From NCBI GenBank assembly GCA_030697645.1, contig JAUYPI010000003.1, positions 318-64,317 on the forward strand: a stretch of 64,000 bases of DNA, written 5' to 3'. Shown one piece after another: positions 30,521-38,375 of the stretch (positions are counted from its first letter, which is position 1; every line of letters starts with the position of its first letter). Below the pieces are notes generated by a model. That model had not been told where the DNA came from. It saw only the letters and a program-made list of their open reading frames with translations, and made no database searches. A program made the translations under genes and the position numbers. This DNA is from a bacterium. GTDB taxonomy: Bacteria > Patescibacteriota > Minisyncoccia > Phycocordibacterales > VMGT01.

Positions 30521-31014
30521 GATTTTACGTATGAGTAGATTGACTAAACTACACAAAAAGCGGAGGAGCTGACACTCGTCTTTGGTAGACTGTGTTCGTC
30601 CCATCCGCTCAAGGTGAGCGGTTTTTGTTTTGTCCGAACGATTGGACGATTGATTCTTTGTCAACAAAATAGGCCCCACGGCAAGAACGCATGGAGCGTT
30701 TTTAATTTCGATATTTTGAAATTTTGATATATCGAGGTGCCGGTGGCGGGCTAAAGCAAAAAGAATCAAATTAAGCAGGTAAAACCGTGCTTCGCACGGA
30801 CATTTCGAAATATCGATATATCGAAATTTCCGCGCGGAGCGCGGTAGCGGTTTTTCCGTTCCTCACAGGAATGGAAGCGCATATGGTGGATGCCTAGACT
30901 CCACATGGCGATGAAGGACGCGGCCTGGCGGCGATACGCTTCGGGGAGGTGCCTGGTAACCTTTGATCCGAAGATTTCCGAATGGGGAAACCCCTTTGCA
31001 TAAAACGCATTGAT

Positions 31015-31391
31015 CTGCCTGTATGTTTTGACTTTTGATTTTTGACAAAAAACCGACTGTCTGACACCTGACGTCAGAGCAGTCGGCCGCTTCGAACTCG
31101 CCCTCGATCCTTAACTTACATAGAGGATGAGGGAGAATGCGAGTAGTAAAAGCAATGCTGCGAGCATATACCAATATTTGTTGTTTTTATTGAGCTCGCG
31201 ATTTGCAGCCCCCAGCGCTTGCGCGGGCACTTCCTGCTCTTCCGTTCTGAGTAAGGAATGGGGATGCCTGTTATTGTGCATGGCATTGCTCCTAATCTAA
31301 GGTAAGAACTTTAAACTCACCCCGTGAGCTTACGTCACGAATATTTTATACTATAAGTATATTTTTGTCAAGAGTCAAAACATACAGGCAG
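31015..31391 (+). other. IVS-like insertion 1 in 23S (helix-9 region), AT-rich
   Basis: 18-bp terminal inverted repeats CTGCCTGTATGTTTTGAC / GTCAAAACATACAGGCAG. Shares internal TTGTCAAGAGTC with insertion 2. Carries ~57-codon ORFs on both strands; the antisense one ends in a hydrophobic helix. Confidence 0.6.
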
Positions 31392-32109
31392 AGGCATACC
31401 CAGGGAAGTGAAACATCTCAGTACCTGGAGGAAAAGAAAACAACCGTGCTTCGCACGGACATTTCGAAATATCGATATATCGAAATTTCCGCGCGGAGCG
31501 CGGCCATTCCCTTAGTAGCGGCGAGCGAAACGGGAGGAGCCTAAACCGTGCGCAGCACGGACATATCGATATTTCGAAATTTCGATATTTCCGCGCTGCG
31601 CGCGGTGTTGTACGGCAACGGCGTAGTTTAACTAGAGAAGTTACAAAGTGGTTTGTTAGCGGAATCTGCTGGAAAGCAGAGCCCCAGCGGGTAATAGCCC
31701 CGTACGCGAAAGCACGCCACCTTCTTTGCTGTTGTTCGTGAGTACCTCGGGACATGAATAGCCCGAGGGAATCTGGCAGGACTAACTGCCAAGGCTACAT
31801 ACGTGTGGAGATCGATAGTGAACAAGTACCGTGAGGGAAAGGTGAAAAGCAGCCCGGTGAGGGCGGTGAAATAGACCTGAAACCATATGCGTACAAGGAG
31901 TCGGAGCTGCCGCACCTCATTGCATTCGGTGCGGACATTTCGATATTTCGAAATATCGATATATCGAAATGTCCACCGCGCCGAGTGTAGCGAGGTGCGG
32001 CGGTCACGGCGTGCCTATTGAAGAATGAGCCAACGAGTTGTCGTTTGTTGCCCGTCTAACCGCTTGTCGCGGGAAGGCATAGGGAAACCGAGTGTTAAAA
32101 GCGCGATCG

Positions 32110-32503
32110 CCTGCTCATATTTTTGGATTTTTATTAGTGGAAGTTAACTGAAACCGCCACGTTCATGTTAAACGTAGCGGTTTATCCCTGAGTCCAAGGA
32201 AGAGCGTCTTCCTCACCTTGTGAGGAAGAACCAGATTTTATCTGGAATGAGCTTTTGAAGGAAAGAGCCTGGAACAAGGAAATAAGCAAGTGCAATACAG
32301 ATCAAAAGCGGCCAATATATCCACCTTGGGACGAAATACCCGAGAAGATAGAAAACACCAGCAACGATACCAATAATGATATGACCTTTAAGGTTCATTT
32401 TCGTCTCCAATCTCGAATGAGGTGCCAGGGGGATGGGGGGTTCTCTATACAACAAATTAGTATAAATGTATTAATTTGTCAAGAGTCCAAAAATATGAGC
32501 AGG
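32110..32503 (+). other. IVS-like insertion 2 in 23S (helix-45 region, ~E. coli 1170), AT-rich
   Basis: Terminal inverted repeats CCTGCTCATATTTTTGGA / TCCAAAAATATGAGCAGG. Internal TTGTCAAGAGTC. Antisense ORF 32213..32455 encodes a small protein with two TM helices. Confidence 0.6.
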
Positions 32504-33784
32504 TACAGCAGCAAACGCCAGACCCGAAGCCGGGTGAGCTTGCCATGGGCAGGGTGAAGGCGATGGAAACATCGCTGGAGGCCCGAACCGGTCAGCCGTG
32601 CAAAACTGTCGGATGACCTGTGGCAAGGAGTGAAAAGCTAATCGAACTCGGTAATAGCTGGTTCTCTCCGAAATAGCTTTAGGGCTAGCGTTCTGTGTTC
32701 CTTCCGGGGGTAGAGCACTGGATGGAAAGAATAGGGAGCAATCTCGTCTTTCCAATCAAACTCCGAATACCGGAAGCACGCCGCACCTCATTGCATTCGG
32801 TGCGGACATATCGATATTTCGAAATTTCGATATGTCCGCCGCGCCGAGTGTAGCGAGGTGCGGCGGATAGCAGGGCAGTTAGACTATGGGGGCTAAGCTC
32901 CATTGGTCAAAAAGGGAAGAGCCTTTGATCTCCAGTTAAGGTCCCTAATACGGCGCTCAGTGCATCTTAAGGAAGTAGAGACCCACAGACAGTGAGGAGG
33001 TTGGCTTAGAAGCAGCCATCCTTTAAAGAAAGCGTAACAGCTCACTCATCGAGGGTTTCTGCGCCGCAGATTCACGGGGCTTAAGCGCCGAACCGAAACT
33101 GAGGATGCCGTGCGCAGCACGGACATATCGATATTTCGAAATTTCGATATTTCCGCGCTGCGCGCGGTGTGGTAGGAGAGCATCCTGCACCCGCAATGAA
33201 GCACGGGCGTGAGCTCCGTGTGGAGCGTGCAGGAGTGAGAATGTTGGCACAAGTAACCGCAATGCGGGTGAAAGCCCCGCACGCCGAAAGCCCAAGGTTT
33301 CCTTGGCGATGACAATCAGCCAAGGGTTAGTCGGGCCTTAGCCGATGGCGAAAGCCGGAGGTGATGGACACACGGTTAATATTCCGTGACCCGGATCCAT
33401 TTCGATGTGGTGACGGAGGAGATAAGCGGGGGCGCATTATTGGATTTGCGTCGCCCGTGCGAAGACGCGCCGCCTAGGTAAATCCGGACGGCACGCCGCC
33501 GCACCTCATTGCATTCGGTGCGGACATTTCGATATGTCGATATTTCGAAATGTCCGCCGCACCGAGTGTAGCGAGGTGCGGCGGTACCGTCGAGCGCGGT
33601 AGAAATTCCGGGGTTCGCCCCGGGAAATCCTCGCGAAGAGCCTTCCAAGAAAAACCACTAAGGCTAGGTGGATTCGGTCCGTACCGCAAACCGACACAGG
33701 TGGGCAGGTCGAGAAGACCAAGGCGAACGGGTGAGTGTTCCCCAAGGAACTCGGCAAAAAAGCAGCCGTAACTTCGGGATAAGG

Positions 33785-34330
33785 CTTGCCTTGTCGGGGC
33801 TGAAAGAAGGAAAATTTTGTTCTTTAAGGAGACGATCAATGGATAGCATAGGTGGGAGGCTGAATTATTGGAGCGGCGAAAAATCCAATAGAAATACCAG
33901 CCGTCAGTGGAATACCACCCTTGATCGTTTTCGTCCGGAAATTCGCTTAAAAACCGAGTTTCCGGTTGAGTTCAGTGGAGCAAATCGGGCGTTTAGTCGA
34001 GTGCTTCCATGCCGTGTAAAATAGCGCTTGTCTGATTTGCTCCGCCAGTCCAATGGAGCGGTCAGGCCGGAGAGTTCTCCTGCAATACGTGGGTGACCCA
34101 TGAGAGGTTGCTACGTTCCCTTGCAAGGTTCTGTAAAAATCTCCCGCCCTGCCGAGTGGTTGAAGTCCACGCCGCTCCAACCCGACCAATGGGGTAGATC
34201 ATGGATACTTTCTGGGATATTGGGAGTGATAACCTCCGAACCCAATTTCCGGAGTAGCAAGTATGCATGGTCTACTCCTTCAATCAATCGGGGGATGTCT
34301 CTGATATCCCCTCCTTCTTTCAGCTCCGAT
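33785..34330 (+). other. ~545-bp insertion in 23S domain IV (between CTTGTCGGGGCTGAAAGAAGG and CCTTCTTTCAGCTCC) containing a divergent copy of a domain-V segment
   Basis: GGATAGCATAGGTGGGAGGCT...GCCGTCAGTGGAATACCACCCTT duplicates the canonical block at 34990-35060. Confidence 0.45.
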
Positions 34331-37205: not shown

Positions 37206-37264
37206 CCATATCGCCGGCGGTGTTCGGCACCTCGATGTCGGCTCACCTCATCCCGGGGCTGGAG

Positions 37265-37550
37265 AAAACAGACCTTCTCTCCTTCGCGGAAACGCGAGGG
37301 TAATAAACGAGCTCAAAACGGTGAAGGCCTTGAGTTAAAGGTTAACGCCGTAGGAAGCCCACTAGTAATTAGTTCCTAGTAACTGGTAATTAGTGTGGCC
37401 CTCTAACGACTGAATCCCGCAAAATGCGGGATGAGATAGAACCATCGCCACGGGTTCTATAATACGGCTCGCACCTACGGTCCGTCTCAGAGGCGGACTA
37501 CGGTGAAGGCATAGTCTGATATCCGTAGTAATACGGGCAAACACAAACTG
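37265..37550 (+). other. small ORF-less group I intron near L2500 (boundaries ±5)
   Basis: Follows exon GGGGCTGGAG. Exon resumes AGGTCCCAAGGGTATAGCTG. GAAGGCATAGTCTG P7-3' plus P9 hairpin near the 3' end. Confidence 0.55.
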
Positions 37551-37606
37551 AGGTCCCAAGGGTATAGCTGTTCGCTATTTAAAGAGGTACGCGAGCTGGG
37601 TTCAGA

Positions 37607-37949
37607 CCGTCCAGGACGTGAATTATGAATGAAGAATCATGAGTCATGGATTGGACAGTCTGAACCCGCATCGAAACTTTTCGTCTATGAAAAATGAAAA
37701 AGGCCTAAACGCACTATACAGTGCGTCGGCCAAGGAACCCCACTATCGCTAAAGCTATGGTGGGCGAGACCAATCATATCACGGCGGTCGCCCGCAGTAA
37801 TGCGGGACGAAGAAGCTGACTATATCGGTGGAACCCTGTTTTACACAGGACAACACCGAGGGAAGTCCGCGTGACCCCGTAGAGACTACATGTCAGCCCT
37901 CCGATTTTATCGGAGAAAGGTATAGTCCAATGCACACAGTAATGTGTGG
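37607..37949 (+). other. small ORF-less group I intron near L2593 (boundaries ±5)
   Basis: Follows exon GCGAGCTGGGTTCAGA. Exon resumes (A)AACATGCGTGAGACAGGTTGGTC. GAAAGGTATAGTCC P7-3' near the 3' end. Confidence 0.55.
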
Positions 37950-38375
37950 AAACATGCGTGAGACAGGTTGGTCTCCTATCTGCTGCAGGCGTTGATTCTT
38001 GAGGGGAGTCGTTCCTAGTACGAGAGGACCGGAATGAACGAACCTCTGGTCTATCGGCTGTCCCGCCAGGGGCACCGCCGAGTAGCTATGTTCGGAATGG
38101 ATAACCGCTGAAAGCATCTAAGCGGGAAGCCAATCCCAAGATGAGGAATCGCGTCGCCGCATCACACGGAGTGTGATGCGGACATATCGATATTTCGATA
38201 TATCGAAATTTCCGCATCGCGCTTCGCGCGATGCGGCGGCATCGGCCCGTGGGAGATGACCACGTTGATAGGCACCAGGTGTACGCGCAGTAATGCGTTT
38301 AGCCGAGGTGTACTAATCCGCCGAAATTCCTGTGAGGAATAGAGGAACCGCGTCGTACCTCGCTCGGGCTCGGTG

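Follow-up and report, generated by a model that had tools for sequence, protein, structure and literature searches.

Clamp-bounded palindromic hairpin cassettes in the rRNA operons of a Patescibacteria lineage, a candidate family of copy-and-replace intervening sequences

Introduction

Why should one 23S rRNA gene carry nearly the same palindromic hairpin at ten separate places? The question is raised by a 64,000-nucleotide stretch of DNA (the window; positions 318 to 64,317 of contig JAUYPI010000003.1, assembly GCA_030697645.1) from a Candidate Phyla Radiation (CPR, Patescibacteria) bacterium, in which a 23S gene and its leader contain repeated modules with an AT-rich core enclosed between two short GC-rich hairpins. 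A preliminary description, made from the sequence alone, took them for an rRNA-targeting insertion element or a processing or recognition module, and not for ordinary lineage-specific expansion segments. The reading favoured here, with a probability of roughly 0.55, is that they form a family of clamp-bounded hairpin cassettes of rRNA operons which resemble bacterial intervening sequences (IVSs), spread by copying and replacement, and are probably excised from the rRNA precursor by RNase III.

The rRNA genes of CPR bacteria are known to be rich in insertions. The most comprehensive survey of these covered insertions of at least 100 bp; short insertions without an open reading frame (ORF) were left uncharacterised, and two sites were considered as maybe IVS-like (PMC11270868). 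Literature searches turned up no account of clamped hairpin cassettes repeated within CPR rRNA, and the cassettes look like an undescribed, rRNA-operon-restricted mobile insertion family. Judged from the sequences, the family is at home in the rRNA operons of a single Patescibacteria lineage with Taylorbacteria and Paceibacteria among its relatives.

One module at unrelated sites of the rRNA

All ten copies announced in the preliminary description were found, no more than 12 nt from the starts given there. With redrawn boundaries they measure 58-94 nt (Table 1). Each consists of an AT-rich core of short-period repeats, preceded by one GC hairpin (the 5' or L clamp) and followed by another (the 3' or R clamp), and four clamp subtypes occur among them. 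Type A clamps (CCGTGC-TTC-GCACGG / CCGCGC-GGA-GCGCGG) are found in the leader, at H12 and, around a different core, in the intron copy. Type A' clamps, at the H15 position and H45, have the same stems with loops GCA / TGC. The 9-bp type B clamps (GCATCACAC-GGC-GTGTGATGC and GCATCGCGC-TTC-GCGCGATGC) belong to the H68 and H98 copies, while type C clamps, at H25, the H37/38 internal loop and H58, have 7-bp stems and 11-nt loops, TCATTGCATTC and GAGTGTAGCGA. An eleventh, related module, which the preliminary description did not list, carries type A-like clamps (CCGTGC-GTG-GCACAG / CCGCGC-CGC-GCGCGG) around a low-complexity hairpin core of the AATTTCCAAT type (AATTTCC-type).

Identity within a subtype reaches 94-100%. 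One 60-nt sequence is common to the leader and H12 copies of type A. Over 67 nt the type A' pair reaches 99% identity, for the H37 and H58 copies of type C the figure is 94%, and the type B copies, read by eye, differ at 5 of 80 positions. The window core consists of 3.75 units of ATWTCGAW and is 30 nt long. A 15-mer taken from it, TCGATATNTCGAAAT, is matched 42 times in the window with up to two mismatches allowed, for 0.80 matches expected; none of 100 shuffles reached this count, and 41 of the 42 matches lie between 30705 and 38209.

The claim that each copy sits at the tip of a different helix stands for only part of the set. When the copies were placed on the 23S structure, as the preliminary description had proposed, through E. 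coli numbering and the helix map, about six landed on helix tips (H12, H25, H45, H58, H68 and H98); the helix names used here (these six, H15 and H37/38) presumably agree with the E. coli map. The other four copies lie in a helix at the H15 position, in an internal loop of H37/38, in the leader and in the intron. The H37 copy was placed by hand from the E. coli alignment, the covariance model having shifted the insert to the H38 apex. The H25 and H45 copies occupy classic IVS sites.

What occupies the same sites in relatives

Related rRNA genes were retrieved by scans of species-representative genomes and of metagenomes which required exact pattern matches, and diverged cassettes were therefore missed. 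Two of the loci, L032 and L040, belong to a species that is sister to the window organism, and the rRNA exons of L040 are 97-99.6% identical to those of the window. At every shared site the cassettes of L040 differ from those of the window. Its H15 site holds a type C module at exactly the boundaries of the window's type A', and its leader, H12, H25, H37, H45, H58 and H68 sites are occupied by hairpin families unrelated to the window's. The type C family thus sits at H25, H37 and H58 in one organism and at H15 only in the other. Cores of L040 are of the GCGGAT, TAGCT, AATTTCCAAT and CTGGTAG types, several of them repeated at two to five sites. The vertical, site-specific inheritance by which the preliminary description expected its proposal to fall is not what the relatives display.

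The same clamps are combined with different cores. At H37 of L040 a GCGGAT-type core is enclosed by type A-like clamps; at H25 of the Taylorbacteria-type locus L043 the type A clamps are exact and the core is of the AAATCCTAAAC type, and L043 and its relatives have related clamps at other sites too. In the relative L042 a GCGGAT-type hairpin stands at the intron position of the window's AAATTTAAA-core module. Clamped TCGA modules with a fifth clamp type occur at the H15 position of L031 and at H45 of L035; the H25 site of L035, filled by a 94-nt module in the window, measures just 28 nt. The three window copies, L040 and L031 all have the same type C L-clamp loop, and the L031 stem differs yet still pairs. 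Whatever the family, the cores are 7-8-nt short-period tandem repeats, and core length is constant at 30 nt in ten sequence variants from five lineages.

The preliminary description had suggested a search for the core in 16S rRNA and in other genomes, and clamped modules were indeed recovered from the 16S genes of Uhrbacteria and Wolfebacteria as well as from further metagenome 23S genes. In the 16S rRNA of an Uhrbacteria metagenome-assembled genome (MAG) a module in h6 shares 53 of 60 positions with type A of the window (~88%, counted by eye), and h40 of a Wolfebacteria MAG has a module of the same architecture. Occurrence is sporadic among related rRNA genes, as L035, L040 and L042 compared with the window illustrate, and some other CPR 23S genes have no modules at all. 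A distant CPR 23S gene, L049, uses one GC-rich hairpin family (...CCTTGTCCTGCCCTTGCTCCAAAC...) at two sites (5403-5597 and 5853-5988, E. coli ~278-290 and ~540), so that reuse of a hairpin across rRNA sites extends beyond the lineage of the window.

Identical copies at unrelated sites, site differences between sister species, modular combinations of clamp and core, and sharing across phyla and between 16S and 23S genes indicate, at the level of sequence, that the cassettes behave as copy-and-replace elements. The same four-part pattern cannot be accounted for by vertically inherited, site-specific expansion segments.

Restriction to rRNA operons and fixed orientation

Over ~460 kb, the window and related loci taken together, clamp-bearing modules lie in rRNA operons only and always in the rRNA-sense orientation; the search also returned two minus-strand spans, which were judged artefactual. 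No clamped copy is present in the ~56 kb of the window that is not rRNA nor in the non-rRNA flanks of the related loci. In this sequence, copies outside rRNA, which the preliminary description had asked about, are absent in clamped form, while clamp-less hairpins and bare repeat runs do occur in intergenic DNA.

The window has seven such clamp-less low-complexity hairpins (Table 1), of 30-70 bp and made of 7-10-nt repeats (AATTTCCAAT, TAGCTNN, TCAATTT and others). Some are found in the gaps between ribosomal-protein genes, in several the apex reads AAACACGACG...CGTCGTGTTT, and the TAGCT-type and AATTTCCAAT-type rRNA modules of L040 resemble them. A bare (ATTTYGAW)n run in the window's rRNA leader is conserved at the same place in L040 (4235-4284). 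In the species-representative scan the bare (ATWTCGAW)n repeat was mainly intergenic in CPR genomes. In Saccharibacteria and other CPR bacteria (L001-L019) such runs are found ~5-30 nt upstream of start codons, with no obvious Shine-Dalgarno sequence, and may be promoter or leader elements of short-leader or leaderless mRNAs.

The uniform orientation of the clamped modules could reflect selection at the RNA level, copying between co-oriented sites or a strand-specific mechanism acting on single-stranded DNA. GC skew is positive over the entire window, which we take to mean that the rRNA-sense strand is the leading one, in which case these three causes cannot be distinguished here.

Clamps, core and predicted fold

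The expectation that the module folds as one long imperfect hairpin was borne out by prediction. For each copy prediction gives one hairpin of 25-42 bp, and this is the lowest-energy fold in 10/10 copies; calculated with 8 nt of flanking sequence at either end, the energies range from -36 to -82 kcal/mol. A three-hairpin (cloverleaf) form was rejected as the equilibrium fold, being 7-23 kcal/mol worse, and may be relevant kinetically or in single-stranded DNA. On the rRNA-sense strand the type C modules have 4-5 G-U pairs against 1 on the antisense strand (-64.5 versus -51.7 kcal/mol), and several L040 modules are likewise G-U-rich in the sense direction (9 versus 0; 8 versus 0). This enrichment points to a constraint on the RNA transcript and not on the DNA alone.

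The clamps tell a partly different story. Their stems are Watson-Crick paired at 198 of 205 positions, each clamp being by itself a nearly perfect local hairpin; pairs were counted by script, clamps of different lengths misaligning in the MAFFT alignment. In no fewer than five independent families the L and R clamps differ by base pairs, and each clamp compensates its own change (in type A, U-A versus C-G). Whenever L pairs with R over the long range, a U.G wobble together with an A.C mismatch is consequently present. Of 50 clamp-loop positions, 47 are mutually complementary, G-U counted. Local compensation of this kind could mark a hairpin that is recognised as such, or equally result from templated quasipalindrome correction in replication, an established process which can create it without selection.

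Other identities for the module were considered and discarded. At 58-94 nt it is too short for the catalytic core of a group I or II intron, and it has 1x1 mismatches instead of the 3-nt bulges around a 4-bp helix of an archaeal bulge-helix-bulge (BHB) intron. An Rfam search of the module gave sub-threshold matches to generic hairpins only, mostly microRNA precursors. A restriction-modification connection of the core was dropped because the remainder of the window shows no avoidance of TCGA (308 versus 330 expected), ATCGAT or TTCGAA. Covariation in the AT core was also rejected: the W positions behave as direct-repeat variants, not as compensatory pairs. Viral contigs had no module matches, leaving a phage origin unsupported, and in a search for proteins acting on the modules the small ORFs of the intron and of the large inserts had no Pfam match.

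Origin and fate of the cassettes

In the favoured reading, that of IVS-like, copy-and-replace cassettes, these elements would be tolerated only at places that leave a long helix room to project, be it from the ribosome, a spacer or an intron. They would be transcribed as near-perfect double-stranded RNA, which RNase III, kept by nearly all CPR genomes, would probably cut, while the GC clamps would stay behind and staple the rRNA fragments together or cap their ends. For copying at the DNA level the preferred guess is ectopic template switching or gene conversion between hairpins, together with homologous exchange between strains through the conserved rRNA flanks.

It is probable that the cassettes are excised from the precursor. 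Such a fate is favoured because copies lie in the leader and in an intron, the duplex is long and near-perfect, two copies are at the classic H25 and H45 sites, and RNase III, RNase J and PNPase are kept in CPR bacteria, at least 90% of whose genomes have rnc, rnj and pnp (PMC12641178). The copies in leader and intron also argue against a role in the mature ribosome. The Salmonella IVSs of H25 and H45 are excised by RNase III and the fragmented rRNA is still functional (PMC2672173), and removal of CPR rRNA insertions from transcripts was reported by Brown et al., to follow the citation of that work in PMC11270868. A gene for RNase J lies within the window (6418-8376).

Several observations weigh against this reading. 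The restriction to rRNA operons was judged on the ~460 kb mentioned above and not on complete genomes. The flanks of the ten copies share no direct repeat that would mark a target-site duplication (GTAAAA/TAGCGG, AAACAA/CCATTC, CCTAAA/TGTTGT), and no fixed target motif is apparent, the 5' flanks of type A and A-like copies being AAAA, ACAA, TAAA, GATG, CGCG, AGAG and GAAG. Pfam scans of the window ORFs detected no transposase, enzymes of the TnpA/RAYT (HUH) kind included, and only a large serine recombinase (1369-3102). With neither transposase, target-site duplication nor shared motif, the word mobile refers to patterns of distribution alone. The compensated differences between L and R clamps suit local hairpins better than a single long hairpin, and simple RNase III excision leaves them unexplained. 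The variable W positions of the core show no convincing covariation among ten variants, the 10-21 position being mismatched in 8 of 10, so the core lends no support to a specific selected fold. The rnc gene is absent from the 64-kb window, its presence being assumed from CPR-wide conservation, and turnover may be slower than it seems, the split between the window organism and L040 being undated. The whole element is an imperfect palindrome, which means that terminal inverted repeats are present. The proposal of the preliminary description is upheld where it set the modules apart from ordinary expansion segments, which the differences of L040 and L042 rule out, and finds no backing, for lack of a target-site duplication, motif and transposase, where it implied active targeting of rRNA.

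The most serious competitor, doubtful but far from negligible, is that the modules are retained as long surface helices of the mature 23S rRNA, their cores grown by slippage and their sites homogenised by gene conversion. The sites include the classical variable or expansion positions H25, H45, H98 and H15-18, the tandem-repeat cores are found in every module family, and sense-strand G-U enrichment implies that the helix matters in RNA. A parallel would then exist in the eukaryotic 28S rRNA, whose expansion segments Hancock and Dover reportedly described in 1988 as 'cryptically simple' and co-evolving. Copies in the leader and intron are however not part of mature rRNA, and slippage cannot produce 60-nt sequences that are 99-100% identical at unrelated sites with their non-repetitive clamps included. 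The sequence at a site is also not vertically inherited and specific to it, given that one cassette occupies several sites and that sister species carry the same cassette at different ones. Eight rods of 25-42 bp and three inserts of 400-570 nt would moreover be unlikely in a lineage with reduced ribosomes, as far as these are described in PMC12641178, and the removal of CPR insertions from transcripts that PMC11270868 credits to Brown et al. points the same way.

A stronger version of the cassette hypothesis, which must be held unlikely, would make the modules a hitherto unnoticed class of rRNA-operon-specific, orientation-locked mobile cassettes of CPR bacteria with defined ends (GUGC-NNN-GCAC plus GCGC-NNN-GCGC and the B, C and D counterparts) and interchangeable cores. 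Their spread would be tied to the rRNA transcript or to rDNA replication, they would act as programmed cleavage sites in which the AU core would be cut, the clamps would staple or cap, and the 23S rRNA would exist in some ten or more pieces.

It is quite improbable that the clamps (for instance GUGC-NNN-GCAC with GCGC-NNN-GCGC, or the UCAUUGCAUUC loop) are instead a dedicated signal bound by a lineage-specific protein, either an assembly factor or an endonuclease that acts alone or together with a ligase, and that the modules are programmed sites of fragmentation, excision or assembly and not selfish insertions. The near-complete pairing of the clamp stems with its local compensation, the clamp loop that is invariant across lineages as its stem changes, the constant 30-nt core, the strict sense orientation within rRNA operons and the leader copy adjoining the processing stem all speak for such a signal. 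Against it stand the lack of a candidate protein, the intron and IVS ORFs having no Pfam match, and the CPR 23S genes that do without any module. Cassettes at a given site are freely replaced by unrelated ones in close relatives, so no particular sequence is required at any site, and the clamp compensation could have arisen without selection through quasipalindrome correction.

Still less probable is an ordinary genome-wide palindrome, of the miniature inverted-repeat transposable element (MITE) or repetitive extragenic palindrome (REP) kind, that is merely tolerated in rRNA loops. The many long low-complexity hairpins in ordinary intergenic DNA of the window, their resemblance to L040 rRNA modules and the intergenic bare runs of other CPR genomes could be read in this sense, but no intergenic hairpin bears GC clamps, all genuine clamped modules lie in rRNA operons in sense orientation with none in the ~56 kb of other window sequence, and neither a target-site duplication nor a transposase in the window was found. 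Finally, chimeric joins or repeat collapse inside the rRNA gene are hardly credible even though rRNA genes and repeats are error-prone in metagenome assemblies and related contigs break near the rRNA gene, for an independent NCBI assembly (L020) has the very same leader module, the sequences of L032 and L040 from two samples of the Joint Genome Institute (JGI) agree, the Wolfebacteria 16S module is present in one GenBank and two JGI records (L003, L034, L038), and the modules sit precisely in rRNA loops with the flanking helices preserved.

The 23S gene and its surroundings

The coordinates of the modules and of the features around them are collected in Table 1. Besides the hairpin modules, the 23S gene is loaded with five intron-type insertions and three large IVS-like inserts. 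The 23S-5S operon lies directly downstream of a ribosomal-protein cluster with rpsC, rplE, rpsE and rplO (22000-30240) and is unlinked to any 16S gene, none being present in the 64-kb window. The L15 protein encoded by rplO is 100% identical to a protein of an NCBI MAG and ~60-65% identical to L15 proteins of Paceibacterota, Kaiserbacteria and Patescibacteria, and the downstream genes for FtsW, a GT4 glycosyltransferase and a sugar transferase follow the order of Taylorbacteria-type contigs. Contigs of an 89%-identical relative, reached through L15 homologues, stop at or diverge past rplO, and no 23S gene was recovered from them. In one of these, L021, the place of the rRNA operon after rplO is taken by unrelated sequence, which has two called genes, one per strand.

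Table 1. Coordinates of hairpin modules and other features in the 64,000-nt window
Feature	Position	Strand	Site and remarks
Type A module	30785-30844	+	5' leader, 2 nt upstream of the 23S processing stem (its leader strand)
Type A module	31444-31503	+	H12, loop of small hairpin, E. coli ~220-233
Type A' module	31546-31605	+	H15 position, E. coli ~272-278; no helix there in E. coli
Type C module	31910-32003	+	H25 tip, E. coli ~544; core of 38 nt, one 8-nt unit longer
Type C module	32779-32866	+	Branches off internal loop, 3' strand of H37/38 stem, E. coli ~925-932; not a helix tip
Type A' module	33108-33167	+	H45 tip, E. coli ~1170-1177
Type C module	33497-33584	+	Domain III, apical H58, E. coli ~1505-1545; alignment ambiguous, placement approximate
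Type B module	34453-34532	+	H68 tip, E. coli ~1871
Type A clamps with AAATTTAAATATTTAAACATTTAAAC (AAATTTAAA-type) core	36056-36113	+	Peripheral hairpin, 15 nt before 3' end of 2262 intron
Type B module	38157-38236	+	H98 tip, E. coli ~2796-2811
Eleventh, related module	35217-35383	+	167 nt, inside 2262 group I intron
Bare (ATTTYGAW)n run, no GC clamps	30700-30735	+	Transcribed leader, downstream of promoter-like site
Clamp-less intergenic low-complexity hairpins	6157-6350, 8432-8552, 26140-26300, 28421-28490, 28843-28955, 38370-38540, 41427-41504		
Promoter-like site of rRNA operon	30492-30520		TTGACA-17-TATAGT
23S processing stem, leader strand	30847-30873	+	Pairs with trailer ~38327-38352; ~25 bp, -46 kcal/mol
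23S rRNA gene	30862-38336	+	~7.5 kb; Rfam large-subunit (LSU) rRNA match, 1311 bits
Intron-type insertions of 23S			E. coli positions ~1931, 2262, 2474, 2533, 2594
Group I intron (Rfam match)	35306-36029		E. coli position 2262
LAGLIDADG ORF	36449-37096		In insertion at E. coli position 2474
5S rRNA	38607-38712		3' of 23S

The 2262 group I intron contains two small ORFs (35479-35667, 62 aa; 35714-35950, 78 aa) without a Pfam match, and the homologous intron of L042 has ORFs of like size and layout (66 and 73 aa). Two of the large 23S inserts, of ~400 nt each (30994-31390, E. coli ~131-174; 32106-32519, E. coli ~651-668), are closed by 18-19-bp terminal inverted repeats. A 40-nt segment common to both is a near-consensus sigma-70 promoter on the minus strand (31371-31343, TTGACA-17-TAAAAT), and each promoter is followed by a small hydrophobic ORF antisense to the rRNA (31111-31281(-), 56 aa; ~32213-32401(-), 62 aa). 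These two ORFs also have no Pfam match; they could be toxin-like genes housed within rRNA insertions. The third insert, of ~570 nt (33786-34357), stands in place of H63 and holds a partial duplicate of L1-stalk rRNA sequence (33837-33861 versus 34992-35016, 88% identity; 33899-33921 versus 35044-35066, 91%), which may either imitate the L1-binding site or be left over from recombination.

At the other end of the window the large serine recombinase gene lies between genes for tRNA-Phe (964-1037) and tRNA-Leu (2900-2984, minus strand), in a low-GC stretch (~42%) that is possibly the edge of an integrated element.

Significance

The short rRNA insertions found here in CPR bacteria are not random padding. 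They are a structured, multi-copy family with conserved ends and fast turnover, restricted to rRNA operons and common to 16S and 23S genes and to several candidate phyla. If the cassettes are excised, the 23S rRNA of this lineage would be among the most fragmented known in bacteria and would offer a naturally occurring model of how ribosomes tolerate many breaks and process them. Cassette swapping at fixed sites gives a direct handle on the origin and spread of expansion and intervening sequences of rRNA. The modules will also disturb rRNA-based detection, alignment and assembly of these organisms.

Comparison with known systems

The closest likeness is to the bacterial 23S IVSs of Salmonella, Coxiella and Leptospira, which are inserted at H25 and H45 and excised by RNase III. 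Both are ORF-less extended stem-loops that replace helix tips, two window copies being exactly at the classic sites; both occur sporadically among relatives, with signs of transfer between lineages, and both offer RNase III a natural substrate in their long double-stranded stem. Classical IVSs however have one family per site, whereas a single 58-94-nt cassette family occupies about eight positions of the mature 23S rRNA in addition to the leader and the intron. Some cassettes branch from an internal loop or junction, their organization is modular (clamp-core-clamp) with clamps common to different cores, and they are present in 16S genes too. Excision is established for IVSs and only predicted for the cassettes.

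Double-hairpin elements (DHEs) and GC clusters of the mitochondria of Allomyces and Schizosaccharomyces (PMC10085805) are also multi-copy pairs of short GC-rich hairpins. They are presumed to be mobile with no known enzyme, have near-identical copies across species and are found in some cases in rnl and rns. They differ in being organellar and mostly intergenic, while the clamped cassettes are bacterial and confined to rRNA operons. Their two GC hairpins are adjacent and have no AT-rich repeat core, whereas in the cassettes 30-130 nt of AT-rich core lie between the two; the comparison implies no similarity of sequence.

MITE-type palindromes, among them the Rickettsia palindromic elements, Neisseria Correia elements, REP and bacterial interspersed mosaic elements (REP/BIME) and IS200/IS605-derived elements, share with the cassettes a small, non-autonomous, palindromic and multi-copy nature and tolerance at permissive positions inside functional genes. 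Transcripts of Correia elements are cut by RNase III. The cassettes have no target-site duplication, target motif or partner transposase in the window, and in the sequence covered the clamped ones are not dispersed intergenically but always point the same way as the rRNA transcript. Elements of the IS200/IS605 type carry a hairpin at either end, insert strand-specifically and produce no target-site duplication. The distinct L and R end hairpins of the cassettes and their own lack of target-site duplication recall these elements and the REP-associated tyrosine transposase (RAYT) systems, from which they differ in having no fixed tetra- or pentanucleotide target.

The expansion segments of eukaryotes, with their 'cryptic simplicity', have in common with the cassettes a slippage-prone low complexity shared by several variable regions, variation between species and the sites H25, H45 and H98. 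The cassettes depart from them in that whole units of 60-90 nt are duplicated, non-repetitive clamps included, and in that copies are placed in the leader and in an intron as well.

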